Positions 9,243 to 60,877 of a stretch of DNA of 64,000 bases are shown here, in pieces. A program made the translations under genes and the position numbers. Below the pieces are notes generated by a model, which was not told where the DNA came from, made no database searches, and saw only the letters and a program-made list of their open reading frames with translations. The DNA is from a virus. The stretch covers positions 1 to 64,000 of the IMG/VR virus record IMGVR_UViG_3300009149_000022. One strand, 5' to 3'. Position 1 is the stretch's first letter. Each line of letters opens with the position of its first letter.

Positions 9243-9491
9243 ATGGACATAAGAATAAACAACATTCTTGACTTGCAATTAGTAAATGATGATGTGTCTA
9301 CGTTTGTCAATGTTTTTGGTGTCCTAAAGACAGCAATAGAAAAACAAGGTGAAAAGGTAGGGTTTAAGAAGAATGGAACAATTACTATTGAGTTATCAGA
9401 AGATCAATTAGAATTTGTTATGTCAGTATGTGAAAATATTGGTATAGTATCAGATGTTGATTCTAGTGACACAGAAGTAGATAAATTATGA
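9243..9491 (+). CDS. Hypothetical protein
   Basis: 82 aa ORF translationally coupled to the polymerase gene. Confidence 0.55.
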   Translation: MDIRINNILDLQLVNDDVSTFVNVFGVLKTAIEKQGEKVGFKKNGTITIELSEDQLEFVMSVCENIGIVSDVDSSDTEVDKL

Positions 9492-10996
9492 TAATAGATA
9501 TTGAACAAAATAAGTATTCTAATACAGTAAAGATTTCTTACATAGATGCAGAAAGGAATAGACAAATCATAGATATTCCAAAAAGTGATTTTTGGAAATG
9601 GCAATATAATGAAGGAAATTATGTTGACAACACCTTTAAATCTTGGGATAATAGAAATGTTATTAGGGTATCATATAAAGATGATAGTCACATAGACAAG
9701 AAAAGTATTTGGGAATGGATTAATGTACACCCACAATATAAAGATATCATATATCAATTTAATTTACCCAAGATACTTTTTTGTGATATTGAAACCGATA
9801 TACACGATGGGTTTCCCGATCCAAATGTGGCAAAAGAAAAAATAACCGCAATTACAGTTTGTTGGAAAGATGATAACAACAAAATTCAAGTTCTTGTACT
9901 AGGAGAAAAAGAAGATTTCGATTATAAAAAACAGAAAGAAATGAACAATTTTATTGTTGATTATTTTTCTAAAGTAACAGATATGGATATCATAATGAAA
10001 TATTTACATATCCCGGACGAAAAAAAATTATTAGAATCGTTTGTGAAAATTTGCTCAAAATTTCATGTCTTAACAGGATGGAATTTCATAAATACTTTTC
10101 GAGCGAATTGGGCCAATGATAGTGGTTTTGACTGGCCATTCTTATCAAATAGAATGGACTTATTAAAGGTTGACTATAAACAAATATCACCAACAAATAA
10201 CGTATCTAGGAAAAAAGATATAGGTAAAGTACCTAGTCATTTTGCAATTGTTGATTATATGTATTATTTTGATGCATTTGATAGAAGTATTAAAGTAAAA
10301 GAATCTAAAGGTTTAGATTTTGTTTCTGGACAAGTGTTGGGTGTTAAGAAATTGAAATATGGTAACTATCCTGTTATGAATGGGGATGTACTAAAAGAAA
10401 TGTATCAAAATGATTATGATACATATTGTATATACAACGCTATTGATACTATTTTAGTGCTCTTAATACACGAAAAAAGACAACCATTTACTGCCATTTT
10501 AGCACAAGGAAATGCATCAGGTAATCATATAGACAAAGCAGATTCTGCTGTTAACGTTACTGAAGGTTTTATGTCAAAAGCATATATCCAAGATAATAAA
10601 GTATTGCCCCTTATAGATATATCAAAAAGAGAAAAAGAATCTTATGAAGGTGCATATGTAAAATCTCCAATAGCTGGGTTACACACCCTAACGTGTTGTT
10701 ATGATTTTAGTTCACTTTATCCTTCTATATCTAGATTCTTAGAATTGGGGTTTGAAAATTTTGATAAAAAGATTATAGGAGATTTAAAAAAATATTCAAA
10801 CTACAAAGAACAATCTGTAAAATTAGAAAGAACTAATAATGATGAAATAATAAGTGTTACTGGTTGTGTCTTTAAAAAGGGTCAATCTACTTTGAAAACA
10901 GTATATGATGATTTGTATGCTGACAGAAAGAAAAATCAATACCGATCTAAATTGTGTGCAAAAATATCACACGAAATAAAACAAAAACGTAAATAA
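9488..10996 (+). CDS. gp43: DNA polymerase B, N-terminal part (3'-5' exonuclease, motif A, first fingers helix)
   Basis: DIETD (ExoI), TGWN...FDWP (ExoII), YNAID (ExoIII), YEGAYV, YDFSSLYPSI; ends after ADRKK. Confidence 0.92.
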   Translation: MIIDIEQNKYSNTVKISYIDAERNRQIIDIPKSDFWKWQYNEGNYVDNTFKSWDNRNVIRVSYKDDSHIDKKSIWEWINVHPQYKDIIYQFNLPKILFCDIETDIHDGFPDPNVAKEKITAITVCWKDDNNKIQVLVLGEKEDFDYKKQKEMNNFIVDYFSKVTDMDIIMKYLHIPDEKKLLESFVKICSKFHVLTGWNFINTFRANWANDSGFDWPFLSNRMDLLKVDYKQISPTNNVSRKKDIGKVPSHFAIVDYMYYFDAFDRSIKVKESKGLDFVSGQVLGVKKLKYGNYPVMNGDVLKEMYQNDYDTYCIYNAIDTILVLLIHEKRQPFTAILAQGNASGNHIDKADSAVNVTEGFMSKAYIQDNKVLPLIDISKREKESYEGAYVKSPIAGLHTLTCCYDFSSLYPSISRFLELGFENFDKKIIGDLKKYSNYKEQSVKLERTNNDEIISVTGCVFKKGQSTLKTVYDDLYADRKKNQYRSKLCAKISHEIKQKRK

Positions 10997-11028
10997 ATAC
11001 ATTTAATAATAAACAAAACAGTAATTTA

Positions 11029-11817
11029 ATGAAAAAAGTAGTATTAAAAACAGTAGACCTAGTAAAGTTTAACAACTTTATTGATTCATTGATTCCACTT
11101 AATGAAACCGGAACTATTTATTTTAAAATAGATTCTAAATATATTAGTACAGATTCACATAATGATAGTGGTACTATCATTAAGAGTCTGAAATCTGAAA
11201 TTAGTCAAATATGTGGAGAATCAAACTTAGATAGTATTGATAAACCAATTAAACTTTGTTTCTATGATGGTAAAAAAGTAAAGAAAGCATTTTCCTTTTT
11301 GAGTGGTAATGAAATTACTTGTGAAATATCGTTTTCAGAACTAGAATCAACCGGTGAATATTTTGCAGAAACTGTTAAGATTTCTAGTCCTAAAATATCC
11401 ATCACATTAGATGCAGCAGACCCAGAATTATTCGAATTTGCAAATGTACCAGAAGATAAAATAGAAGAGGTTAAAAATGTTTCAAATGCTGATTGTAATT
11501 TTAGAATGAGTGCAAATGAAATTTTACAAGTTCAAAAATTCTTAGATTTTGATAAAAATGAAGAAGTTGAATTTAGAGTAAATGGACAAGTTACCGTTTG
11601 TTCAGAAGATGCTTATGATATTTCAATTTCAGATGATTTCGAAGGATTGCCTAATGGTGGTATGAATATCTATAAAATAGGTAAAGAACTATTTAAATTA
11701 GTAGATTCTAATTCATATGTTGTATATCCAGTATTAGATGAATGTAAAATAATTTTTAAAGCAGAAGATAATTCTACACAAGTAGTTATCACATTACATG
11801 AAGACATAGATTTATAA
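11029..11817 (+). CDS. gp45: Sliding clamp (gp45/PCNA-like)
   Basis: 262 aa acidic protein with a two-domain alpha/beta pattern; replication context; clamp loader subunits present elsewhere in the window. Confidence 0.65.
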   Translation: MKKVVLKTVDLVKFNNFIDSLIPLNETGTIYFKIDSKYISTDSHNDSGTIIKSLKSEISQICGESNLDSIDKPIKLCFYDGKKVKKAFSFLSGNEITCEISFSELESTGEYFAETVKISSPKISITLDAADPELFEFANVPEDKIEEVKNVSNADCNFRMSANEILQVQKFLDFDKNEEVEFRVNGQVTVCSEDAYDISISDDFEGLPNGGMNIYKIGKELFKLVDSNSYVVYPVLDECKIIFKAEDNSTQVVITLHEDIDL

Positions 11818-11818
11818 T

Positions 11819-12562
11819 ATGTCCATAAGCATTAAAAATATGAGCACAGAAGAACTAGAGAATTTCGATTGGGATTCTCTAGATGATTCTCAATTAGATA
11901 AAGTTCTTGTTCAGTTAGATGATGAAGCCAATATTAAGAAAACACTAGAGCAAAGTAACAAATTAGTTCTTAATTCAATATATGGCGCACTTGCGTCTAA
12001 ATACTTTTATTGGTATGATAAATCATTAGCTGAAACTATTACTATACAAGGTCAAGATGCTATTCGATATGCTGAAAAGGCATTAGATTCTTATTTTCAT
12101 AATGTTTTTCACAAAGATAAATTAGTTTTGACTAAACTAAAAGAATTGTGTCCAGATGTTAATATTGAACCACAACCGTGTGTGAAACCCACTGTGGTAT
12201 ATATTGATACGGATAGTGTCGATAAAGATACTATTGTTAGTACTAATAAAGGCAATATTAGAATAGAAGATTTATATAACGAATCTAACAATAGTGCTGG
12301 TAATACACAAAACGGTCACGAATCAGTAACAACCAATAAAACCGTATTAAATTGGTCAAAAGAAAAAGGACTATATCAAGCACCAGTGAAAAGAGTTATT
12401 AGACACAAAGTAACTAAAGCAAAGTGGAAACTTAAAACTAAATCAGGAAAGGAAGTAATCGTAACTAATGACCACTCTATGATTGTTTTTAGGAATGGTA
12501 TTAAAGTTCAAGTTAAACCATCAGAAATTAAAAAAACTGATAAAATATTATCAGTTTTGTAG
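11819..12562 (+). CDS. gp43: DNA polymerase B middle part (motif B, start of motif C) fused to split intein N-half
   Basis: KLVLNSIYGAL, TIQGQ, YIDTD, then SVDKDT...VIVTNDHS (intein blocks A and B). Confidence 0.92.
   Translation: MSISIKNMSTEELENFDWDSLDDSQLDKVLVQLDDEANIKKTLEQSNKLVLNSIYGALASKYFYWYDKSLAETITIQGQDAIRYAEKALDSYFHNVFHKDKLVLTKLKELCPDVNIEPQPCVKPTVVYIDTDSVDKDTIVSTNKGNIRIEDLYNESNNSAGNTQNGHESVTTNKTVLNWSKEKGLYQAPVKRVIRHKVTKAKWKLKTKSGKEVIVTNDHSMIVFRNGIKVQVKPSEIKKTDKILSVL
12215..12559 (+). mobile_element. Split intein N-fragment (115 aa, Ser1, no Cys)
   Basis: Begins at S immediately after YIDTD; block B TNDH; followed by a stop codon. Confidence 0.9.
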
Positions 12563-12638
12563 TTCATTATGGAAAGAATTAATATGGCATAATGGACAAA
12601 GAAAACAAATTCAATAGAACAAGTAGAAAAAATAGTAA

Positions 12639-12767
12639 ATGAAATACGAAATAGAAGAAATAGAATCAATTGAGTGTATAGGAGATTTCGAAGATGAATA
12701 TGTCTATGATATTGAAGTAGATGACGATACTCACACTTTCATTGCTAATGGTATATTAGTTCATAAT
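12639..12767 (+). mobile_element. Split intein C-fragment (43 aa, ends His-Asn, Ser+1)
   Basis: Blocks F and G recognised directly. Confidence 0.9.
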
Positions 12768-13592
12768 AGTGCTTATGTTACTTTCGAAGAGGTTGCGGAA
12801 AAAATTAATTGGACGGGTTCTCCTACTGATCTTGTATTAACTATTAATGAAATTAGATTATCTGGTTATCTAAAAAAGGTATTTGATAAATACGCCGAAT
12901 CTTACAACACAGATAATTATTTAGATTTCGAATTAGAAACTATTAGTAAATCTGGTATATGGGTTAAGAAAAAGAAATACACACAAGATATTGTGTGGGC
13001 TGATGGTAAATTCTATGATAGTGGAACATATACAAAAACAACCGGTCTTGAAATTATTAGACTAACAACACCACCTTTTTGTAGACCTGAATTATCTAAA
13101 TTGGTTCAATGGATATTTGATAAAGGTAAAAACTTTACACAAAGAGATATAACCATTGAATTACTAAAACTAAAGAAACGATTTGCCATAGCAGGTATAG
13201 AAGACATTTCGATAACAACAGCAATTGGTGACTATGAAAAATATGTTATAGATGACAAAGACTCTTTAAATCTCAATGATGGTTGTGGTACACATATTAG
13301 AGGTGCTGCGATTTATAATATGTACATTAATAACAATTCATCATATGAAAATCAATACGAAAGGTTAAAAACGGGTGACAAGGTAAAATGGTATTATGCA
13401 AAATCACATAAATCAGATTATAACGTTTTTAGTTTTAAACGTGGTTCATTCCCTAAAGAATTTGCACCAGAAGTGGATATTGATTTGATGTTTGAAAAAA
13501 CTATCATAAATCCATTAAACAACATACTACAAGCAATACCAGGTATTAATAAACTATCTGGATCTTTAAAAATTAAAAATCGTTTATTTTAA
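12639..13592 (+). CDS. gp43: Split intein C-half fused to DNA polymerase B C-terminal part (palm/thumb)
   Basis: YVYDIEV...TFIANGILVHN|SAYV, then KKKKY, TGLEIIR, HIRGA, GDKVK. Confidence 0.92.
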   Translation: MKYEIEEIESIECIGDFEDEYVYDIEVDDDTHTFIANGILVHNSAYVTFEEVAEKINWTGSPTDLVLTINEIRLSGYLKKVFDKYAESYNTDNYLDFELETISKSGIWVKKKKYTQDIVWADGKFYDSGTYTKTTGLEIIRLTTPPFCRPELSKLVQWIFDKGKNFTQRDITIELLKLKKRFAIAGIEDISITTAIGDYEKYVIDDKDSLNLNDGCGTHIRGAAIYNMYINNNSSYENQYERLKTGDKVKWYYAKSHKSDYNVFSFKRGSFPKEFAPEVDIDLMFEKTIINPLNNILQAIPGINKLSGSLKIKNRLF

Positions 13593-13609: not shown

Positions 13610-14830
13610 ATGACAAAAGTAAGTAAAAAACACAGTTCTGTCGATGACATATTCAAAGAATTAGGAGAAGTTAACCCCTTTGGAACAAGTTCCTTTGGTA
13701 ATTCAGAAACCTATAAGAATGAAACATGGATAGATTCTGGTAATTGGATTTTAAATGCAGCCCTAAGTGGATCAATAAAAAAAGGGTTTCCAAGTACTAA
13801 ACAAACCAGTTTAGTAGGAGAATCTGGTAGTGGAAAAACATTCTTAACATTGAACGCTGTAAGAAATGCCCAACAAATGGGTTACACACCAATATATTAC
13901 GATACAGAAGGTGCTGTTGATCCACAAGCATGTATAAATTTTGGAATTGATTTAGATAATTTTAGACACGAACCAGTTTCCGAAATCGAAAAACTGAAAA
14001 CCATGTTTGCTATTTTTATCAAGAGTTTAACAGATTTAAAAATAAAAGGTAAAGAAATTCCAAAATTTATTTTGATTCTAGATTCTATTGGTATGGTTGC
14101 ATCATCTAAAGAAATCGAAGATGCGAGAACGGGTAATAGTGCTGCGGATATGACAAGAGCAAAACAAATACGATCTTTTTTTAGAATAATCACATCTGAT
14201 TTAAATTCATTGGGAATACCTATGTTATTCACAAATCACGTAGGTGTTAATATAGGAGGATATGGTGATCCTGTTGTACAAGGTGGTGGTAGTGGTGTGG
14301 TTTATTCACCAAGTATTACATTATTTTTATCTAAAGCTAAATTGAAAGATGATAAAGGTGATGATAAGAAACAAACTGGTGTTATAGTTACAGCAAAAAC
14401 CGGTAAAAATAGATTTGCACAACCAAAAACAATTAAATTCCCCATTTTCTTTGATAGACCGTTTAATAGATATATGGGTGTACAAGATTATTTGACTTGG
14501 GAAAATGTGGGTATTGCAAAGGGTAATATTTTAACAGAAAAAGAATATAGTAAACTCAAAGGTGCTGAATTAGAAAAAGTTAAATCATTCACACCATCTG
14601 GTAGTGAAGAAGTAATGTATTTTATGCCAAAAGAAACAGCTAGGAATTATGTTATTGAACATTTGGGTATTACGGTTGACGCACGAAACTTATTTACTGA
14701 TAAAGTAATGTTACCCTTAGAAGACCGATTCGATAAAGTTATTAGAAAAGATTTTGAGTTTAGTTCCCAAGAATCTGATAGTGAAATAGATGGTTTGATA
14801 GATGAATCTGATGAAGAAATCGAAGATTAA
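13610..14830 (+). CDS. uvsX: RecA-like recombinase UvsX
   Basis: GESGSGKT, YYDTEGA, LDSIG, DMTRAK, FTNH. Confidence 0.92.
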   Translation: MTKVSKKHSSVDDIFKELGEVNPFGTSSFGNSETYKNETWIDSGNWILNAALSGSIKKGFPSTKQTSLVGESGSGKTFLTLNAVRNAQQMGYTPIYYDTEGAVDPQACINFGIDLDNFRHEPVSEIEKLKTMFAIFIKSLTDLKIKGKEIPKFILILDSIGMVASSKEIEDARTGNSAADMTRAKQIRSFFRIITSDLNSLGIPMLFTNHVGVNIGGYGDPVVQGGGSGVVYSPSITLFLSKAKLKDDKGDDKKQTGVIVTAKTGKNRFAQPKTIKFPIFFDRPFNRYMGVQDYLTWENVGIAKGNILTEKEYSKLKGAELEKVKSFTPSGSEEVMYFMPKETARNYVIEHLGITVDARNLFTDKVMLPLEDRFDKVIRKDFEFSSQESDSEIDGLIDESDEEIED

Positions 14831-15196: not shown

Positions 15197-16501
15197 TTGT
15201 ATATGATAAACACAAGTGAATTTGAAAAGATTTTTTTACTTTTCGCATTAGAAAATCCGGTATATTTAGAACCCATAGAAAGATCATTTTTTTCTGTTCC
15301 TGAAATAGATTTACTTGCAATAATTTCTAAAAAATATTATAAGAAATTCAAAAAAGCACCATCAAAAGAAAACTTGTGGATGTTAATATCTACTGGTGAA
15401 TTAGAAGAAAAATGTCCTAAGATTTTTTTCGATGAAATATTTAAGAAAAACATTAGAGAATATGATATTGAATGGGTTGAACAAACGGCACAATCTTGGA
15501 TTAAATGGAAACACTTAGATTCTTCAATTGTAGATACTGTTGAATATATAAACACCGCAAAAGTTACACCAGAAAATGTTGGTGAAATTGTTGATAGTGT
15601 TAAGAATATGATTAATGGTAGAAACAATCTAACATTTGATGATGATCTGGGTACAGACTTTTTTGATGCAAAATCCCATAAAAGAAATGCAGAAGATTTA
15701 CTTAGTTCTAATTACGATTTCATAGATAAAAACTTAGGTGGTCATTCTAAAGGTACACTAAATGTGTATATTGCACCACCTAATACTGGTAAGTCATTAT
15801 TCCTTTGTCAAGATGCTGCTAATTATATTAAATCGGGAAAAAATGTTTTATACATTTCATTAGAAATGCAAGGACAAAAGGTACATAAACGAATAGGTTC
15901 TGATATTTTCAACATAAATATAAGTCAATACGACAAAAAAGCCGAAGATTTAGACTATATGCAACGTAAGATTACTGAATTCAAAGAAATGAATTTAGTA
16001 ACACCGGGTGCATTAACAGTTAGGAATTACGAAACTAGTAATGCAACAGCTGATGATATTGATAATTTTATTGGTAAAATACAAGATATAACTGGTATAA
16101 TATATGATGTTGTTTTGGTTGACTATATCAACATCATGAAAGATAAAAGAAATCCTAATTCTGAATCTACATATTTGAAAATTAAAAATATATCAGAGGA
16201 TTTAAGAGCAGTTGCACAAAGAAGACATGTTGTGATGATAAGTGCCACACAAACAAATAAAATGGGAATAGAATCGTCTAATTTAAATTTAAGCCATATT
16301 GCAGAGTCAGCTGGTCTTGCTGCAACTTGTGATACTATTATGGCTATTATACAAACAGCTGAAATGAATTTAGAAAATTTCTATTGGTTGAAACTCATAA
16401 AAGTTAGAGATGGATCAAAGGGTGCTAAATGTCGTATCAATATAGACTATGATTATATGAGACTTACTGAAACCAATACTGTTATGTTCGATTCGGAATA
16501 A
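15197..16501 (+). CDS. gp41: Replicative DnaB-like helicase (start possibly 15203)
   Basis: APPNTGKS, YISLEM, VDYINIM, ATQTN, IAES. Confidence 0.92.
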   Translation: MYMINTSEFEKIFLLFALENPVYLEPIERSFFSVPEIDLLAIISKKYYKKFKKAPSKENLWMLISTGELEEKCPKIFFDEIFKKNIREYDIEWVEQTAQSWIKWKHLDSSIVDTVEYINTAKVTPENVGEIVDSVKNMINGRNNLTFDDDLGTDFFDAKSHKRNAEDLLSSNYDFIDKNLGGHSKGTLNVYIAPPNTGKSLFLCQDAANYIKSGKNVLYISLEMQGQKVHKRIGSDIFNINISQYDKKAEDLDYMQRKITEFKEMNLVTPGALTVRNYETSNATADDIDNFIGKIQDITGIIYDVVLVDYINIMKDKRNPNSESTYLKIKNISEDLRAVAQRRHVVMISATQTNKMGIESSNLNLSHIAESAGLAATCDTIMAIIQTAEMNLENFYWLKLIKVRDGSKGAKCRINIDYDYMRLTETNTVMFDSE

Positions 16502-16586: not shown

Positions 16587-17534
16587 ATGAAGATAACCGA
16601 AAATGATAATATACAATGGGAAAGAATGGGAATTTACATATTACTAAATGAAAACGGAAAGTGTTATATAGGTAGTACTAACAATATAAAAAATAGATAT
16701 TTTAGACATAAACACCTGTTGGTGAATGGTAAACACGGCAAGTATATACAAAGAGCATATAATAAAAAAACAGCTAAGTTTAATTTTGAAATATTGGAAT
16801 ATGTAGACGATGTTAAAGATTTAAGAAAAAGAGAGGCACACTATATAAAAGAATACCAATCTATGTACTATCAAAATGGATATAATATTTTTGATGTGGA
16901 TGATAATGGATATTTTTGCCATTCAGATGAAACTAAAAAGAAAATATCAGAAGCAAATAGAGGTAAAATACCATATATAGATATTTTTGGGGCACATGGT
17001 GTGACAACTAAAGATGATACAAGATGGGAAAGTGGCGAAATATATCACAATACTACAAATAAAGTTTCTTGTATAGATAGTAATGGAAATACTAAAGTGG
17101 TAACTATGGAAGAATTTGAATCATCAAAAGATTTGTTTGGTGTCAATAAAGGTAAAAGTACATACAAGGACAAGTATGGAAATACTACAATGACTACCAT
17201 AGATGACCCTAGAGTATTAAGTGGTGAGTTGGTTGGTATTACTAAAGGAATACCTTCATTGCATGCCAAGGTAATTACTGTTGATGGTATAACATATCGT
17301 TCGTTAGAAGATGCATATACAACACTAGGAATATCAAAACCAACTTTCCGTAAACTATTAAAGGATGTAAATAATATTATATCTACCGTTCCATTTCAAG
17401 TGTCATTGTCAAAATATTTAGACGAAAAAAATAAAAGACAAGTTATTATAGATGGTATTGTATATAAGAATATGACAGTTGCTGTGAAAGAATTAGGAAT
17501 AAGTAGGTATAAATTAAAAAAACATGAAAGCTAG
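16587..17534 (+). mobile_element. Free-standing GIY-YIG homing endonuclease with NUMOD-type DNA-binding modules
   Basis: GIYILL...CYIGST, R..RH, E, GYN; HSDETKKKISEAN (NUMOD3-like); C-terminal HTH-like repeats. Confidence 0.9.
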
Positions 17535-30570: not shown

Positions 30571-31542
30571 ATGTCCGATGAAAATATACTAAACGAAGAA
30601 GATTTAAGATTTTTAAAAGCTTATTTAGACACCGAAGAAAAAATTAAACAATTTTTAATAACTTATATGTATATATTATCCCCTGGTATGGCCGATGGTA
30701 TCACAGAATCACAAATCATCGAAAGAACAATACTAGAAAGTGATTTAATTAATGAAAATTTAATAGGAGACGTTTTTACATTTATAAAGGGTAAAAATGC
30801 AATAAGTAAATATTATAAGGGATTAGATTCTGCCGCAAAAAACTATATATCAGCAGCTAAACAAATAGATAATTTAGATAGAGATAAAAGAGGTGATAAG
30901 AGAAAATCAGAATTGGATAAATACGAATCTACCGTTAAAAAATTAGAAGATGTAAAGAAAAACATTGATAAATTAAAAAAGGATTCTAAAATACTATCAA
31001 AATATGATTCTTATTCAAATAACAAATATAAAATAAAATTATTTCTAACTGGTAGAAAAGCTGGTGTTTCCTTATCTAAATTAAAAGGATATGAGGATGA
31101 TATAGATGCAATTAAACAAAATCAAACCACACTAAAACAAGATATTGAACAAGCTGAAAAGGAAGCAAAAGAGGCAGAAGAAAATCAAAAACCTAAAGAA
31201 ACGCCCGACACAAATTCACCTGACGATACCGAAAAAACTATAGATACAAAAAAGGAAAATATACAAAAAGAGTTAGATAAACTAAAAGAAAAGAAAAACA
31301 AAATAAAGAAAAACACCATTATTTTAAAAAACAAACTTAAAAATGGTGAATCATTAACAGATGAAGATAGAAGTAAACAAATTGATTATGCAAATAGTAT
31401 TTCAAAAATAGAAGATCAAATTGTAAAATTAGAAAAAAATTTAAAAGAAAATTCAACACTATCGTTGTCTTTTTTCATGGATTTACACACACTTAACGAA
31501 GATATTACATGCTTAGAAAATTCAATAGGAGAAAATCTATAA
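30571..31542 (+). CDS. Hypothetical late coiled-coil protein (start re-assigned to MSDENILNE)
   Basis: Follows a terminator (30508-30539) and TATTAAATA (30542); has ILNE/ILE/INE/LNE sites. Confidence 0.55.
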   Translation: MSDENILNEEDLRFLKAYLDTEEKIKQFLITYMYILSPGMADGITESQIIERTILESDLINENLIGDVFTFIKGKNAISKYYKGLDSAAKNYISAAKQIDNLDRDKRGDKRKSELDKYESTVKKLEDVKKNIDKLKKDSKILSKYDSYSNNKYKIKLFLTGRKAGVSLSKLKGYEDDIDAIKQNQTTLKQDIEQAEKEAKEAEENQKPKETPDTNSPDDTEKTIDTKKENIQKELDKLKEKKNKIKKNTIILKNKLKNGESLTDEDRSKQIDYANSISKIEDQIVKLEKNLKENSTLSLSFFMDLHTLNEDITCLENSIGENL

Positions 31543-32150
31543 GAAAAAATTTTAACACAGATATAATCTATAAGGGTTTACTTTTAGATAAGGCAAATCA
31601 ACAAGAAAAAAAAGTACTTACAACTAGTAAAATTGCACAAAAGTGGTTTGATGATGATTTGTTTTGTAACATACTAATCCAAAAGGATAAGTTTTTTATG
31701 AATAAGTTAACGGGTCACCAAACAAAAAGATTATTTCCTTTTTATCCTAGTTTTATACCACTAATAGATTCGAAAACAATTCTATCTAAAGAAGAATATT
31801 ATTGGACAGCAAATACTATTGAATATCCTTGTATACGATGTAACAATCCAACCATTTCGTTTTTGGGGGATTTTAAATTAAAAAATGTTTTGTGTGGTAA
31901 TTGCATAGAGGACCACTATATTAATAAAATGGGACGTTTCGATAAACACATGCACAATCACGAATATTCTAAATATCAACAAAATTTTTATATTATCAAC
32001 AAAGAACATCAAAGTATGATATTCAATAAACTCATTAAAAGAGAAAGATCACTATATATCAACGATAAGACAATTTTGAAATCTGTAAAAAGAGTATACA
32101 CAAACAAATTGAATCACATAGAAAAAATATTTAATTCTTTACTAGGTTAA
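31509..32150 (+). CDS. Hypothetical protein with a CxxC...CxxC zinc site
   Basis: CIRC and CGNC. Confidence 0.45.
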   Translation: MLRKFNRRKSIRKNFNTDIIYKGLLLDKANQQEKKVLTTSKIAQKWFDDDLFCNILIQKDKFFMNKLTGHQTKRLFPFYPSFIPLIDSKTILSKEEYYWTANTIEYPCIRCNNPTISFLGDFKLKNVLCGNCIEDHYINKMGRFDKHMHNHEYSKYQQNFYIINKEHQSMIFNKLIKRERSLYINDKTILKSVKRVYTNKLNHIEKIFNSLLG

Positions 32151-32799
32151 ATTTTATCAAATAAGGTAAAATTATACCCAACGGATTCAATGCTATGCTC
32201 GTTTTTATTTCTATTACATTATTTTCTTCATCATATACAAAGGGTGTTTCACTATAGAACGAACCGTTATATTTAACCTTTCCATTTTTTGATATTGTAT
32301 AATGTTCGATTATAGAACAATTACACATTTCTATATAAACATGTAACTTTTTTCTTTTATCCAGTATTCGTTTTCTGACAACAGAAATATTATTCTTTAA
32401 AAATGTTATAGTTGATTTTATTTCCAGATATTTCTTTTTCAATTGTAACACACTACGTGTTGCAATTTCATCTATTTCAGCTAGTTCTAGTGAAGTTCCG
32501 GGTAATTCATAAATATAATTAAACAATTTTTCACTTTTCTTATCTTTATTAATAATTTCATAACTAGCAATAAAAGATTCTAAGTCTCTATATCTTTTTT
32601 CCAATGTTTCAAACTCTTGAAACAAAAACCCTTTATCAATGTTTTGCTCAACTCTTTGTAAATATGCCATTAGTTTCCAATGTTTGTGTTCGACATCTAT
32701 AGGTTCTTCTACAAACCACGTGTTAGGGAATTCGTTTGGAACATAGTTCTTATCTTCGATTATAATTTTATCGGTTCCTATAAAATATTCTGTATTCAT
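32131..32799 (-). CDS. Hypothetical protein
   Basis: 222 aa ORF divergent from the clamp loader; normal composition. Confidence 0.6.
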   Translation of the reverse strand: MNTEYFIGTDKIIIEDKNYVPNEFPNTWFVEEPIDVEHKHWKLMAYLQRVEQNIDKGFLFQEFETLEKRYRDLESFIASYEIINKDKKSEKLFNYIYELPGTSLELAEIDEIATRSVLQLKKKYLEIKSTITFLKNNISVVRKRILDKRKKLHVYIEMCNCSIIEHYTISKNGKVKYNGSFYSETPFVYDEENNVIEIKTSIALNPLGIILPYLIKFNLVKN

Positions 32800-32843: not shown

Positions 32844-33797
32844 ATGAGTTTAAAAAACAACATTTGGGTCGAAAAATATAGACCACAAACATTAGAAGAA
32901 TTAATTATACCCGAACGTGTTTATAATAAATTCAAAGGTGGTAAATTGAACAACCATGTTTTGTTATATGGTAGTCCCGGATTGGGTAAAACTAGTTTAG
33001 GTAAAATCATAGCAAAAGATATGGTGAGTTTAGAAATAAATTGTTCACTTGATACTAGTGTAGACAATGTAAGGAATAAAATAACAGATTTTTGTTCTAA
33101 TATTTCTATTTTAAATGGTAAGAGAGGTCAAAAAGTAGTTTTGTTAGATGAGTTTGATGGTGTTTCTGAACAATATCTAAAAGCTATGAGGGGTGTGATA
33201 GAAAAATTTGCATCGACAACCAGATTTATAGCAACTTGTAATTATATTCAAAAGATACCTGATAACGTACAATCAAGATTTGATTGTATAAATTTCGATT
33301 TTCCGAAAGAGGAAGAAAGAGATTTAATGAAAAAATACTTGATTAGGTTTAACACAATATGCAAAGCTGAAGGAATTACAATTGAGCCCAAGGTCATGGG
33401 TAAAATTATAAAAAAACACTTTCCAGATCTTAGAAGTACTATAACATTTTTACAAGGAATGTACGAAGAAGGTAAATCTGAAATCAAAGAAGAAGATTTA
33501 TCGACATTCACGGGTGAAAATAAAGAATTGTTTGATAAGTTGTCGAATGCTAACGAAAAGTTTATCGACATTTATGTTTACGCATTTAAAAATCATGTCA
33601 ATAATGAAGACAATGTGTTTAATTCATTGGGTAAAGAATTTATAGATTACCTAATGAAAAAAGAAATAGATTCTAATAAAATAGGTAATGTTATTGTCGA
33701 TGTTGCTGATTATACATATAAATCTAATTTCGTTATAGATAAGTTCGTAACACTTTCTGCTTGTTTACAAAAAATTAAAAAAACACTAAATGAATAA
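32844..33797 (+). CDS. gp44: Clamp loader large subunit (RFC-like AAA+)
   Basis: WVEKYRP, GSPGLGKT, LDEFD, SRF, FPDLR. Confidence 0.93.
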   Translation: MSLKNNIWVEKYRPQTLEELIIPERVYNKFKGGKLNNHVLLYGSPGLGKTSLGKIIAKDMVSLEINCSLDTSVDNVRNKITDFCSNISILNGKRGQKVVLLDEFDGVSEQYLKAMRGVIEKFASTTRFIATCNYIQKIPDNVQSRFDCINFDFPKEEERDLMKKYLIRFNTICKAEGITIEPKVMGKIIKKHFPDLRSTITFLQGMYEEGKSEIKEEDLSTFTGENKELFDKLSNANEKFIDIYVYAFKNHVNNEDNVFNSLGKEFIDYLMKKEIDSNKIGNVIVDVADYTYKSNFVIDKFVTLSACLQKIKKTLNE

Positions 33798-35422: not shown

Positions 35423-36202
35423 ATGAACATTAAAGAAAAATTTTGGGTGGGAACTTTCATATCACTATGGGTTCTCGTAAGTACTGTGAGTACATTTCAC
35501 AGTGTGGAATTCTTTGGATTATCAAATAATTTATTTCTTTCTTGGTGTATAGCAATCGGTTTTGAAATTGGTGCAATGGCATCACTAGGGGGGTTGTTAA
35601 TTGACAAGGGAAATAAAACAATCGTTTGGATGTTGTTCATTATACTAACAGCTTTTCAAATTCATGGTAATATGTATTGGGCATGGTCACATGCTGGTGA
35701 TATATCTGAATGGTCTAAGTTATTCGATTTAGTTGAAGAAGACCCAAATTTTACAAAAAGAGTATTTGCATTTATAAGTGGTGGGATATTACCCCTAATT
35801 TCATTGGGGTTTATTAAATCATTAATGGATTATATGAAACCTAAAGATGAGGTTGTAAAAGACAAAAATGATACACAAGAAGAAAAAACGGTTGAAAATA
35901 CGATAGAAGATATCGAAGAAAATAAAAACGAATTACAAGAAGATGATTCTTTAGTTAACTTAGAAACCGAAATTGATATTCCCGAAAACACCCCAGTTGA
36001 AAATGATAATTTTGAAAAGTGGTCAACAAGTGAATCAGAAGACCTGATGCCCGATGAACTTTTCGAATTAGGTAAACAAGAACCTGAACCTATTGACTAT
36101 AATCCATTACCACGTGTGTTAAATAAGGAGATAGACCCTACTAAGTTAGGTGACATTATTGATAATGCAGAAAATACTGTAAATTCAATAGGTGAAAAAT
36201 AA
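35423..36202 (+). CDS. Multi-pass membrane protein with acidic C-terminal tail
   Basis: About 4 hydrophobic segments; late motif at 35372. Confidence 0.6.
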   Translation: MNIKEKFWVGTFISLWVLVSTVSTFHSVEFFGLSNNLFLSWCIAIGFEIGAMASLGGLLIDKGNKTIVWMLFIILTAFQIHGNMYWAWSHAGDISEWSKLFDLVEEDPNFTKRVFAFISGGILPLISLGFIKSLMDYMKPKDEVVKDKNDTQEEKTVENTIEDIEENKNELQEDDSLVNLETEIDIPENTPVENDNFEKWSTSESEDLMPDELFELGKQEPEPIDYNPLPRVLNKEIDPTKLGDIIDNAENTVNSIGEK

Positions 36203-56475: not shown

Positions 56476-58350
56476 ATGAAAGGATTAAACGAATTCAAAA
56501 AGGTTGAATTAACAACCGATCAACAGGAACTAAATGAAAAACTTATTACCTTTGGTGGTAAAGCATATCCTAAATTTGGAAATGTTGTTTTATTAGCGGG
56601 CGGTGCCGGCTGTCATATAAAAGGAACAGAAGTTTTAATGTATGATGGTTCACACAAAAAAGTAGAAGATATTGTAGTAGGTGATTTACTTATGGGAACA
56701 GATAGTACAAAAAGAACTGTTAACGAATTACATTATGGTATTGATAAAATGGTTTCTGTAGAATCTAAAGTTGGAAATTATATTTCTAACTTTAGTCACA
56801 TACACACTTTTGTAGCTAGTTTTGATAAATGTGGTTATAAAAAAGACCAAGTTTATGATATGACATTAGAAGAATATACTAAACTAAATGATTCGACCAA
56901 AAAGTCATTAAAAATTTTTAGAAATGAAGAAATAGAATTCGAAAAAGATTCATATTCTTTGAACATTGACCCTTGGATAGTAGGATTTTGGTTAGGTGAT
57001 GGTACTAGAAAAACCCCTAGTTTTACAATAGAAAATAATTCTCAAATTATAAATTATATAAAGGATAATTATGAAGGTAAAGGGTATATATTTAACACAG
57101 AACATAAACAAGTTAAACCCAACTGCAAAACATATTCTTTAATAACCGAATCTAAAAACAATCCTTTTAGAGATTATGTAATAGAAAAGTGTGAAATTAA
57201 TTCAGAAAAAAGAATTCCAAAAGAACTTTTATTATCATCAATAGTTAATAGAAAAAAAGTTTTAGCGGGATTGATAGATTCGGATGGTTATTATGGTGGT
57301 GGTGTATATGAAATTTGTACTAAATGGGAATCATTAAAAAATGATATAGAATTTTTATGTGGGTCATTGGGTTATAAAACAAATACAACAATAAAGAAAG
57401 TTAATTATAATGGAGAAATTAAAGAATATCAAAGAATAACTATTTCTGGAAATTTTAAAAATTTACCAATAGTTTTAGATTATAAAAAATCACATCAAAA
57501 TAAAAACAAAAATCCAAATAGAGGATCATTCAAAATATGTATTTTAGATGAAATGGAATATTATGGTTTTTCAATTAAAGAAAACGATAAACATTTTATT
57601 TTGAAAAACTGGATTGTTCAACATAATTCAGGGAAAGGTTTTATTAAAGATAACTTACTAGGTATCGAAGGTCAAGTTTACGATGTTGATGAAGTTAAGC
57701 AACTTGCACTTAAATCTGATAAGATTAAGAAAATGGCACAAGAAGCAACAGGTAAAGATATATCTACTTTTGATTTAAAGAATCCAGATGATGTTGGTAC
57801 GCTTCATACTATTCTTGATGAAACACTTAATGTTATTGATAAAAGAAAATTATCAAGATATGCTGGTATTTTAATGGCACCGGCAGATAGAAAACCAAAT
57901 CTTATTTTTGATGTTACACTAAAGAACTTGAATAAGTTAAGAAGCATTTCAGCAGATATTAAAGAATTAGGATATGAAGGTGTTAATACTCACTTAGTTT
58001 GGGTTATTAATTCATATAATGTTGCGATGGCACAAAACAAAGAAAGAAGTAGACAAGTACCAGAAGAAATTTTAATGGACACACATAGAGGAGCAGCACA
58101 AACAGCTAAAGATATTCTTGATATGGGTAAAGACATTAAAAAATACTTAGATGGTGATATTTGGTATGCATTCAACAAAAGGGGTGTAGATTCTATAATT
58201 GCTAAATCTAACAAAGGGGGTTCTTACATTAAAGATGCTAATTACATTAAAGTAAAAGAAGCCGGAAAACCTATTAATAACAAAAAAGTTACCGATGAAG
58301 TAGTTAAAAAAATTGCTGGTTATGTACCACCAAGTAACTATTGGGGATAA
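56476..58350 (+). CDS. P-loop kinase (zeta-toxin/AAA_33-like) containing an intein
   Basis: Spliced Walker A reads LAGGAG|SGKGF; YDVD, NLIFDVT, QNKERSRQVPE. Confidence 0.8.
   Translation: MKGLNEFKKVELTTDQQELNEKLITFGGKAYPKFGNVVLLAGGAGCHIKGTEVLMYDGSHKKVEDIVVGDLLMGTDSTKRTVNELHYGIDKMVSVESKVGNYISNFSHIHTFVASFDKCGYKKDQVYDMTLEEYTKLNDSTKKSLKIFRNEEIEFEKDSYSLNIDPWIVGFWLGDGTRKTPSFTIENNSQIINYIKDNYEGKGYIFNTEHKQVKPNCKTYSLITESKNNPFRDYVIEKCEINSEKRIPKELLLSSIVNRKKVLAGLIDSDGYYGGGVYEICTKWESLKNDIEFLCGSLGYKTNTTIKKVNYNGEIKEYQRITISGNFKNLPIVLDYKKSHQNKNKNPNRGSFKICILDEMEYYGFSIKENDKHFILKNWIVQHNSGKGFIKDNLLGIEGQVYDVDEVKQLALKSDKIKKMAQEATGKDISTFDLKNPDDVGTLHTILDETLNVIDKRKLSRYAGILMAPADRKPNLIFDVTLKNLNKLRSISADIKELGYEGVNTHLVWVINSYNVAMAQNKERSRQVPEEILMDTHRGAAQTAKDILDMGKDIKKYLDGDIWYAFNKRGVDSIIAKSNKGGSYIKDANYIKVKEAGKPINNKKVTDEVVKKIAGYVPPSNYWG
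56611..57627 (+). mobile_element. Cis intein (339 aa) with LAGLIDADG endonuclease
   Basis: CHIKGTEVLMYDG start, VGFWLGDG and LAGLIDSDG motifs, ends IVQHN before Ser. Confidence 0.93.
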
Positions 58351-59227: not shown

Positions 59228-60877
59228 ATGATTAAAGCAGATAAATATTATATTCAAAATCTAAAGGAAATACTTTTTCAAAATAACATAGATGAAAACC
59301 CAAGACCATCATACAAAGATGGAACTAAAGCACATACTAAGTTTATTACACAAGTTTTTGAAAAGTATGATATATCAAAAGGTGAATTTCCAATAACAAC
59401 ATTAAGAAATACTGCAATTAAAACAGGTATTAAAGAAATGCTGGTTATCTACCAAGAACAATCAAATAAGTTGGTTGATTTTGAAACTGCTAAATGTGGT
59501 TGGTGGTCGGAATGGATGAACGAAGATGGTGATCTAGGTAGAGCATATTCACATAATATGGAATCACACCGACCTAATGAGATGCAAAAAACTATTGTTA
59601 AGGTTAAACCCAGAATAGTTGATGAAAAATATTCAGAGATGCTGAATATAATGGATATTAACGATACTTCTCTGGTTGCAAATCCGATAAAAATATTTGA
59701 AAATTATCAATTAATTCGTGAAGATAAGAAATCTAGGAAATATGTGTTGCAAAATATATCAACAGGGGAAATACAAGTAATAACGCATAAAACATATAAA
59801 AAGTTGTTAGATGGTGACCCTTCTTTTCTAATAAGAAAAAGTCCATTCTTGTATTGTAGGAATAATGAAGGTGTTGGTTATTTAGGAAATTATAAAACAA
59901 TTAATGGTTATAGTGATGCAACATTAAAATTACTCAGGGATAAATGGGTAAACATGTTAAGAAGATGTTATTCTGATAAATATGAATCACATAACGATGT
60001 TTTTGTACACCAAGACTGGCATAGTTTTGAAAACTTTCTGAGAGATGTTAGAATGCTACCACAATATCATTTAGCAAAAGAAAATAATTTCGATGGGTGG
60101 GATTTAGATAAAGATTACTATGGTAGTAATTGTTATAGTAAAGATACTTGTGTTTTTCTTTGCCATAAGGATAATGTTTTATATGCTAGTTGTTATCCAA
60201 TTAAGGTAACTAAACCTAATGGTAATATTGAACATACAATAAATATTAGAGGTTTTTGTGCTGAACATAATTTATCTAAAACTTGTTTATTGAAGGTTAT
60301 TAATGGTAAACAATCGCACCACAAAGGTTATAAATTTGAAAAGATTATAGATACTGAAAATCTGTATAGATATGAACTTTCTAATAACCAATTAACCTCA
60401 TTATTAGATGGTTTAGAAAATAATCCATTTGGACGTAGACACATTATGTCATTTTGGAATTGGTCTAATATTGATAAGAAGGAACTTGTTGAGTGTGCGT
60501 TTGAAAGTTTATGGACACCTCGAAAAGTTGATGGTGTGATGTATTTAGATATGACATTAACACAGAGAAGTCAAGATGCTATTATGGCAACATATATCAA
60601 TAAAACCCAATATGTTGCATTGCAAATGATGGTTTGTAAACATTTAGGTTTTGAGGTTGGTGTGTTTTCACACATGATTCAAAACTATCATATTTATGAT
60701 AGACATGTAAATGCTTGTAATGAATTACTTGCAAGAAAACCTTTGAATTTTCAACCTTCGATGAAATTAAATGTTCCAAACAAAACAAACTTCTATGAAA
60801 TAAAGATACAAGATTTTGAAATTATCACATCTAAAAACATCAAGAAAATAGAATCAGAATTAGAGATTGCTATTTAG
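59228..60877 (+). CDS. thyA: Thymidylate synthase with an in-frame ~275 aa endonuclease-like insertion
   Basis: FPITTLR, WSEW, RRHIMSFWN, EC, QRSQD, N..QY, HIYDRH; insert at about 59561-60385. Confidence 0.9.
   Translation: MIKADKYYIQNLKEILFQNNIDENPRPSYKDGTKAHTKFITQVFEKYDISKGEFPITTLRNTAIKTGIKEMLVIYQEQSNKLVDFETAKCGWWSEWMNEDGDLGRAYSHNMESHRPNEMQKTIVKVKPRIVDEKYSEMLNIMDINDTSLVANPIKIFENYQLIREDKKSRKYVLQNISTGEIQVITHKTYKKLLDGDPSFLIRKSPFLYCRNNEGVGYLGNYKTINGYSDATLKLLRDKWVNMLRRCYSDKYESHNDVFVHQDWHSFENFLRDVRMLPQYHLAKENNFDGWDLDKDYYGSNCYSKDTCVFLCHKDNVLYASCYPIKVTKPNGNIEHTINIRGFCAEHNLSKTCLLKVINGKQSHHKGYKFEKIIDTENLYRYELSNNQLTSLLDGLENNPFGRRHIMSFWNWSNIDKKELVECAFESLWTPRKVDGVMYLDMTLTQRSQDAIMATYINKTQYVALQMMVCKHLGFEVGVFSHMIQNYHIYDRHVNACNELLARKPLNFQPSMKLNVPNKTNFYEIKIQDFEIITSKNIKKIESELEIAI
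59561..60385 (+). mobile_element. HNH-like endonuclease domain embedded in ThyA (boundaries approximate)
   Basis: GVGYLG, W.NMLRRCY, WHSFENF, WDLDKD, YSKDTCVF...N, plus C-terminal FCAEHNL...HHKGY DNA-binding module. Confidence 0.75.

Follow-up and report, generated by a model that had tools for sequence, protein, structure and literature searches.

A stretch of 64,000 nucleotides of viral DNA (positions 1 to 64,000 of the IMG/VR record IMGVR_UViG_3300009149_000022; here called the window) carries at positions 9488 to 13592 what is, in all likelihood, the working replicative family-B DNA polymerase (PolB) of a marine T4-like myovirus, encoded in three genes. The polymerase chain is cut once at the fingertip and once inside catalytic motif C, where the two pieces carry the halves of a predicted split intein, and a gene for a sliding clamp, recognised by its modelled fold, lies between the first and the second polymerase gene. 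The original prediction, made from the letters of the DNA, had described this arrangement, and the open reading frames (ORFs), coordinates and motifs were confirmed. The source record is a 73.7-kb fragment with an estimated completeness of about 27%, and the window is AT-rich (GC content of 26 to 36% per 2 kb). The virus was assigned to the T4-like myoviruses because the window encodes UvsX, a gp41-like helicase, gp46/47, gp2, gp4, gp20, gp21, gp23, tail sheath and tube proteins and a gp44-like clamp loader. Phages of Bacteroidota are the closest relatives of the virus. Four plus-strand genes, whose ORF coordinates were checked, lie within 9488 to 13592 and encode proteins of 502, 262, 247 and 317 residues. 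The features of the locus, together with the loader gene, are as follows.

9488 to 10996, plus strand: gp43A-type N-terminal subunit of PolB, 502 residues, with the N-terminal domain, the 3'-5' exonuclease domain, palm motif A, the first finger helix and a basic tail (PF00136, phrog_2062)
11029 to 11817, plus strand: sliding-clamp gene, 262 residues, modelled two-domain PCNA/gp45 fold (AlphaFold2, Foldseek, VIA-align)
11819 to 12220, plus strand: N-extein of gp43B1, 134 residues, with an acidic helix, the second finger helix, motif B and the palm up to YIDTD of motif C (phrog_1918)
12221 to 12562, plus strand: N-intein, 113 residues plus stop codon (PF14890, match to 9HTH)
12563 to 12638, no strand: spacer between the intein halves, 76 nucleotides, no endonuclease gene
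12639 to 12764, plus strand: C-intein, 42 residues, blocks F and G (PF14890 profile positions 121-155)
12765 to 13592, plus strand: C-extein of gp43B2, 275 residues, with Ser+1, the rest of the palm, the thumb and a C-terminal tail (phrog_1918, phrog_262)
32844 to 33797, plus strand: large subunit of a gp44-like clamp loader (phrog_168, expectation value [E] 5.7e-70, full length)

Part 1 of the polymerase (gp43A) matched the Pfam family PF00136 (PolB) and aligned end to end with phrog_2062 (protein residues 7-499, profile positions 8-494 of 502), which, judged from its length and this end-to-end match, would be a family of free-standing N-terminal subunits. It also aligned to residues 101-430 of RB69 gp43, motif A (DFSSLYPS) included, and has the exonuclease (Exo) motifs DIETD, FD and YNAID. 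In a MAFFT alignment, part 1 ended within a few columns of the ends of gp43A of Aeromonas phage Aes509, ORF-236 of Tenacibaculum phage PTm1 and MA9V2_192 of Chryseobacterium phage MA9V-2, and all four proteins terminate right after the first finger helix; at the same position, the unsplit relatives MaF61 and PA5oct have long, variable fingertip insertions. The break therefore falls between the two finger helices, with motif A in part 1 and motif B in part 2. As originally described, part 1 ends in the fingers with a basic tail (net charge of +7 over the last 35 residues), and part 2 has an acidic start (−8 over the first 40 residues) that leads to motif B. Residues 40-96 of part 2 aligned to RB69 residues 552-608, and K48 is the equivalent of K560. 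The N-extein of gp43B1 covers positions 5-108 of the C-subunit family phrog_1918, that is, from the start of the profile, and the C-extein matched positions 104-367 of the same profile and positions 581-837 of phrog_262. The C-extein is 83 to 87% identical to those of relatives, and its C-terminal tail, ...SGSLKIKNRLF, is conserved in all members of the clade with the pattern SLKIK(N/K)RLF. Across the chains, the catalytic motifs Exo I-III, A, B and C are intact (DFSSLYPS, KLVLNSIYG and YIDTD/S, where the slash marks the site of the intein).

The second cut lies inside motif C. Part 2 (247 residues) continues from motif B (KLVLNSIYG) through VVYIDTD into an N-intein that starts with SVDKDT; part 3 (317 residues) opens with the C-intein and goes on with SAYVTFEE..., the palm and the thumb. 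The borders of the intein were fixed exactly because the related contigs L004 to L008 have an intein-free allele, VVYMDTD/SAYVTFEE. These contigs hold gp43A, the clamp (67 to 68% identical) and a single intein-free gp43B; the gp43B of 406 residues in L004, with which the N-extein of gp43B1 is collinear, reads ...VVYMDTDSAYVTFEE.... The halves are in separate genes, with a stop codon at 12560-12562, a spacer that has stops in the frame of the C-intein, and an ATG at 12639. Contigs L003 and L009 from other metagenomes (75 to 87% amino acid identity) share this stop behind the N-intein and this restart; since these contigs are independent, the split layout is not an assembly error. A third allele is present in contig L010, where a gp43B of 563 residues has a contiguous mini-intein of about 157 residues at the motif C site. 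Thus, one clade carries intein-free (L004 to L008), cis-intein (L010) and split-intein (window, L003 and L009) alleles, and the intein, a selfish element, is present in some sister contigs and absent from others.

Both halves have the residues expected of a functional intein. The N-intein (113 residues, no cysteine, net charge of +11) has its position-1 nucleophile, Ser135 of part 2, directly after the N-extein and contains block B (VTNDH) as well as the NX motif RH (VIRHKV); an NX motif, a histidine preceded by R or K, has been described for Ser1 inteins (PMC10189870). The C-intein (42 residues, one noncatalytic cysteine, net charge of −13) ends with ...THTFIANGILVHN, and the junction ...GILVHN/SAYV provides the terminal HN and Ser+1. 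Hence the set Ser1, RH, TNDH, HN and Ser+1 is complete, and the original placement of split intein halves inside YIDTD/S holds. The N-intein scored 37.3 bits against PF14890 (Intein_splicing; cutoff, 35.8), matched phrog_27191 along most of its length and matched the Aes123 PolB1 intein in the Protein Data Bank (PDB 9HTH; E 3.5e-11), and the C-intein is 57 to 90% identical to the C-inteins of Aes509, PTm1 and IMG/VR loci. We therefore predict from the sequence a Ser1/Ser+1 split intein of the Aes123 PolB1 type inside motif C, the splicing of which should give a gp43B of 409 residues containing YIDTDSAYV. The Aes123 PolB1 intein is naturally split and cysteine-less, comes from T4-like Aeromonas phages, is reported to trans-splice to about 30% in vitro and has been engineered further (PMC11923092).

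If the halves no longer spliced, they might serve as a mere noncovalent dimerisation module in a three-chain enzyme with a discontinuous motif C. That mobility is gone is evident from the loss of the homing endonuclease (see below), splicing of the Aes123 relative reaches just about 30% in vitro, and the split NrdA of phage Aeh1 assembles without covalent joining (PMC2988022). However, all splicing residues are kept, both halves are under strong purifying selection, and an unspliced intein between the catalytic DTD and Ser would sit in the centre of the active site, so that we consider a nonsplicing intein quite improbable and retain the prediction of trans-splicing. In comparisons of 12221-12764 with L003 and L009, the synonymous substitution rate (dS) of the N-intein was 0.68 to 0.74, about half that of the flanking exteins (1.25 to 1.63). 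The intein may thus be more recent in ancestry than its host gene, pointing to lateral transfer within the clade, on a small sample and with dS near saturation.

The ratio of the nonsynonymous substitution rate (dN) to dS was computed for six segments of the window against L003 and L009. All six are under purifying selection, with approximate dN/dS values of 0.04 to 0.18: 0.08 to 0.10 for gp43A, 0.11 to 0.17 for the clamp, 0.16 to 0.18 for the N-intein and 0.04 to 0.05 for the C-intein. These values bear on another reading: selfish elements might have broken up a polymerase gene that is decaying or redundant, or the layout might be an artefact of assembly, with replication carried out by a polymerase encoded in the unsequenced 70% of the genome. 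The record is indeed only about 27% complete, the genome is full of selfish elements, and related jumbo phages have been reported with an additional minimal PolIII-like enzyme (PMC7824862). But decay agrees neither with the low dN/dS nor with the intact motifs Exo I-III, A, B and C; three independent assemblies have the same layout, the close sister contigs examined keep the order gp43A, clamp and gp43B, and Aes509 and PTm1, viable phages in culture, have the three-gene design too. A broken or artefactual locus is therefore very improbable, and we take the three genes to encode a working enzyme.

The gene between gp43A and gp43B1 (ORF 11029-11817) had no named match in Pfam, in PHROGs, among the PDB sequences or in a tblastn search of 50,697 phage records, and it does not belong to the Pfam gp45 families PF02916 and PF09116. 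The 262-residue protein has 31 homologues in metagenomes, all of them unnamed or called hypothetical. From an alignment of 26 of the 31, an AlphaFold2 model was built (predicted local distance difference test [pLDDT], 88.1; predicted template modelling score [pTM], 0.84), and it has the two domains of a clamp. Among the 50 matches listed in a Foldseek search against the PDB, all were clamps. VIA-align gave a Z of 20.2 to PCNA and a Z of 19.5 to T4 gp45 (1czd), with a root mean square deviation of 2.5 over 211 residues, and the clamp-fold alignments span model residues 2-260, nearly the whole chain. The closest viral fold match was the uncharacterised ORF-237 of PTm1 (TM score, 0.82), to which there is also a weak BLASTP match (2e-8), and the nearest named clusters in the ESM Atlas were gp45 sliding clamps. 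The identification came from the fold search alone. The clamp fold with which the original idea of a nested clamp gene stood or fell is thus present in the model, according to which the protein is a structural clamp homologue from a separate sequence family.

The context of the gene agrees with this assignment. The presence of the gp44-like loader (32844-33797) implies use of a sliding clamp by the phage. Clamp loaders are also present in the records of PTm1, MA9V-2 and LR756500 (a 462-kb uncultured phage), in none of which was there a match to the Pfam gp45 N-domain PF02916, and MA9V-2 and LR756500 each have one copy of the window's clamp family. PF09116 had no match in the window's own record. 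Furthermore, a homologue lies between the polymerase halves in PTm1 and MA9V-2 and directly upstream of gp43B or gp43B1 in LR756500 and in the loci L027, L028 and L031. Clamp nesting is therefore a trait of the clade and not a peculiarity of the window. A second clamp near the loader was looked for in ORFs 31509-32150, 32131-32799 (minus strand) and 35423-36202; profile A1 gave hhalign probabilities of at most 1.2%, and Pfam was blank for the three ORFs, of which one could still be a clamp of another family. With the model matches, the loader and the single-copy family, the clamp reading is well supported in fold and context.

A protein with a PCNA fold need not be the replicative clamp: ORF 11029 might be a paralogue that serves only late transcription or repair, and the true gp45 might have its gene elsewhere. 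A shared fold is no proof of function, the protein has no sequence match to the Pfam gp45 families, and the genome is incomplete. Against a paralogue speaks the position of the gene between polymerase genes, with its stop codon 1 nucleotide ahead of the start of gp43B1, and the adjacency of its homologue to gp43B in LR756500, L027, L028, L031, MA9V-2 and PTm1. Likewise, the three genomes with a loader and no PF02916 match, two of them with a single copy of the family, and the gp45 identity of the nearest named Atlas clusters argue for a replicative role. A paralogue is thus unlikely, and we keep the assignment as sliding clamp. That the replicative clamp of this T4-like and jumbo lineage, the cultured members of which infect Bacteroidota, is an undescribed sequence family whose gene is kept by gp43B, and in several genomes between the polymerase halves, and that the fingertip split is old and stable and not a recent insertion, is a wider proposal for which we see about even chances.

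The spacers between the intein halves are homologous, with lengths of 76 nucleotides in the window, 77 in L003 and 210 in L009. The window spacer (12563-12638) has no endonuclease gene; its match to the 3' end of the homing endonuclease gene of L027 was no more than weak (E 0.11). The L009 spacer encodes about 43 residues that resemble the N terminus of the L027 endonuclease (E 0.003 in a small database). They form the first part of an ORF of 66 residues (L009, 7758-7958) that holds ...EFDSCIVTGESIIY... and is probably a decayed endonuclease remnant. Because of this better-preserved L009 spacer, we infer that the window spacer is probably what remained after deletion of a free-standing VSR/Hef-like homing endonuclease. 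In split-intein loci outside the window's clade, the gap holds an ORF of 347 to 567 residues in 21/21 tabulated cases; in 20 of these the gap encodes one endonuclease family, which includes the VSR endonucleases of Aes509 and PTm1 and the Hef-like endonuclease of PA5oct. Fractured genes, in which a free-standing homing endonuclease accompanies a split intein, were reportedly described by Dassa et al. in 2009; the endonuclease gene between the intein halves that marks such a gene is absent from the window.

The genes gp43A, clamp, gp43B1 and gp43B2 form one tight block, which is particular to the window locus. No plus-strand terminator-like hairpin was found within 9488-13592, and the three polymerase genes and the clamp gene appear to form one transcription unit. 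Sigma-70-like promoters were not more frequent than in shuffled sequence and were uninformative. Between 9000 and 17700 there was no Rfam match, so no group I intron or other RNA element was recognised. An ORF of 82 residues at 9243-9491 overlaps the start of gp43A by 4 nucleotides; it is without a family match and is kept upstream of gp43A in all close relatives (55 to 59% identity). It may encode a small replication or regulatory protein that is cotranslated with gp43A.

Several points weigh against our reading of the locus. Splicing, complex formation and ring formation are predicted from homology and conservation. Part 1 apparently has a glutamine in place of the conserved finger-helix lysine (RB69 K486), a substitution that it has in common with MA9V-2 and PA5oct. 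With the record at about 27% completeness, a further polymerase or clamp gene could lie elsewhere. A whole-genome search with profile A1 missed the PTm1 homologue, and the link to the PTm1 clamp is drawn from the pairwise BLASTP match and the fold match. Finally, dS values of 0.7 to 1.6 are near saturation and make the dN/dS values approximate ones.

By homology, the parts would work together as follows, along the lines originally proposed, and of the readings weighed this one has the strongest support. The N-intein (+11) would pair with the C-intein (−13), and trans-splicing would proceed by oxyester chemistry via Ser1, the histidines of RH and TNDH, the terminal HN and Ser+1. This would join gp43B1 to gp43B2, restore motif C (YIDTDSAYV) and yield the gp43B of 409 residues. 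gp43B would then bind gp43A noncovalently. The finger helices, an antiparallel pair cut at the variable fingertip, would pack together, and the basic gp43A tail and the acidic gp43B head may help in assembly. The clamp would form a trimeric ring, be loaded by the gp44-like loader (32844-33797) and tether the polymerase, probably via the conserved ...KIKNRLF tail, which is suggestive only. The homing endonuclease kept between the intein halves in distant relatives would have been deleted here.

Other genes are interrupted in the window and its relatives. In L003 (5487-7679), L009 (8895-10717) and L010 (8557-8880), uvsX is interrupted behind about residue 74, close to the P-loop, with an N-terminal piece of 102 to 107 residues followed by a piece of about 495 residues, of which roughly the first 160 are foreign. 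The arrangement resembles an intein that is split atypically and has a short N-half, a type reported for metagenomic UvsX genes. The window has the intact, uninterrupted uvsX allele (13610-14830). In L009 (11083-12432), the match of the gp41-like helicase stops at residue 381 and the ORF ends with ...GDKLVKASDLVIGDKLTSK, a stretch resembling the beginning of an N-intein; in the window the helicase gene (15197-16501) is contiguous, and the next gene encodes a GIY-YIG endonuclease (16587-17534; matches to Pfam GIY-YIG, NUMOD3 and the I-TevI DNA-binding domain). An ORF of 624 residues (56476-58350) matched Hom_end_hint (residues 46-99), a LAGLIDADG-type Hom_end (247-325) and a terminase-large-subunit PHROG and is probably an intein with an endonuclease domain inside a terminase or ATPase gene. 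The thymidylate synthase ORF (59228-60877, 549 residues) has an HNH/I-HmuI-like segment at about residues 226-379 between two ThyA-matching stretches; an inserted endonuclease or intein, or a fusion, may account for it. In LR756500.1 (208154-210872; L019 and L020), the gp44-like loader is in two pieces about 1.7 kb apart that match profile positions 7-116 and 110-309, a replication gene interrupted by an insertion.

New are the recognition of the nested gene as a clamp from a family without a Pfam or PHROG match, its position beside gp43B in several relatives, the probable loss of a homing endonuclease between intein halves with a 76-nucleotide spacer remaining, and a single clade with intein-free, cis-intein and split-intein alleles. 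The assignment fills a gap in annotation, since the databases call hypothetical what is the sliding clamp in PTm1- and MA9V-like phages and in their marine relatives. In the deposited annotations the nested gene was apparently not recognised as a clamp, and the MA9V-1 paper makes no mention of a sliding clamp. An essential replicase can tolerate two kinds of gene fragmentation at once under strong purifying selection; knowledge of how such polymerases work is unchanged by the locus. If our reading is right, the clade of the window is a natural series of alleles (intein-free, cis mini-intein, split with endonuclease, split without endonuclease) and thus material on how split inteins evolve, and a nearly cysteine-free split intein from a marine phage is on offer. 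The clade is also material for finding further Ser1/Ser+1, nearly cysteine-free split inteins, which are wanted as tools to ligate proteins in oxidising surroundings (PMC11923092, PMC12707363).

The combination of both splits in one locus, with the clamp gene nested inside, had originally been called unusual. In part this did not stand: the three-gene design with fingertip split and split intein is already on record in Aeromonas and Tenacibaculum phages, and both splits occur together in Aes509, in PTm1 and in about 20 IMG/VR loci. The nesting of the clamp gene is real and apparently was unrecognised. The proposed survey of relatives for the same gene order found the layout of the window in L003 and L009 and a similar one in PTm1. 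With part 2 as the query, 32 loci were obtained from IMG/VR. About 20 loci outside the window's clade have gp43B1 from the fingertip to the N-intein, a gap of 1.1 to 2.1 kb and then a C-intein-led gp43B2, and five have the cis form of the intein. In the more distant split-intein loci there was no gp43A within 5 kb, so the three genes are dispersed there.

Aes509 and Aes123 (JN377902, JN377899), like the window, have a T4-like PolB in three genes, with the fingertip split at the same alignment position and a homologous Ser1/Ser+1 split intein at DTD/S in motif C (C-intein 57% identical), but the exteins are just 23 to 31% identical to those of the window. In contrast to the window, gp43A and gp43B1 of Aes509 are adjacent (28-nucleotide gap), with no clamp gene between them, and a VSR-type endonuclease gene of 353 residues lies between the intein halves, where the window has 76 nucleotides. 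The GenBank annotation of Aes509 (JN377902) lists gp43A, gp43B1 ("includes putative N-intein"), a putative VSR endonuclease and gp43B2 ("includes putative C-intein"); a literature search on this three-gene arrangement gave nothing beyond that annotation and intein-engineering papers. In PTm1 (AP019524, ORF-236 to ORF-241), as in the window, the N-terminal polymerase half is followed by the clamp homologue and the C-terminal half, in the order polymerase, clamp homologue, ORF of 351 residues, "intein-containing split DNA polymerase precursor", VSR endonuclease and polymerase; the extra ORF of 351 residues after the clamp and the VSR endonuclease between the intein halves set it apart from the window. 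MA9V-2 (MA9V2_192 to MA9V2_196) also has the clamp homologue between the polymerase halves but differs in a TnpB gene and in having no intein. In both phages the clamp homologue is labelled hypothetical, and identities to the window proteins are 21 to 40%.

Phages 44RR, 25, 31, 65 and 133, like the window, have PolB cut at the variable fingertip between the finger helices, with between 2 bp and 3 kb separating the gp43A and gp43B genes (Petrov et al. 2006, 2010, cited in PMC3061061 and PMC2988022). As cited there, the gap holds intercistronic spacers, homing endonuclease genes or a group I intron, and no clamp gene or intein is described. gp43A and gp43B of phage 25 copurify as an active polymerase (PMC2988022), and a fingertip-split Pfu polymerase behaves as the wild type (PMC3061061). 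The Pseudomonas jumbo phages MIJ3 and PA5oct share with the window a split intein in an essential replication gene, published for MIJ3 together with its endonuclease (PMC6892783), and blocks A, B, F and G of the MIJ3 intein (SVDGSTILNTSL, NKVIVTEDHSIMV, VYDIGM... and GNNILVHNS) closely resemble those of the window. Unlike the window, both have no fingertip split (the N-terminal part has 804 residues) and keep a Hef-like endonuclease of about 560 residues between the halves. T4 gp45 and PCNA have the two-domain fold over its full length in common with the modelled window clamp (Z of 19.5 to 20.2), and a gp44-like loader is encoded in the genome, but sequence similarity was not detectable (9 to 15% identity in structural alignments), and the window clamp has 262 residues compared to 228 in T4 gp45. 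In T4, gene 45 sits with genes 44 and 62 and not inside gene 43.

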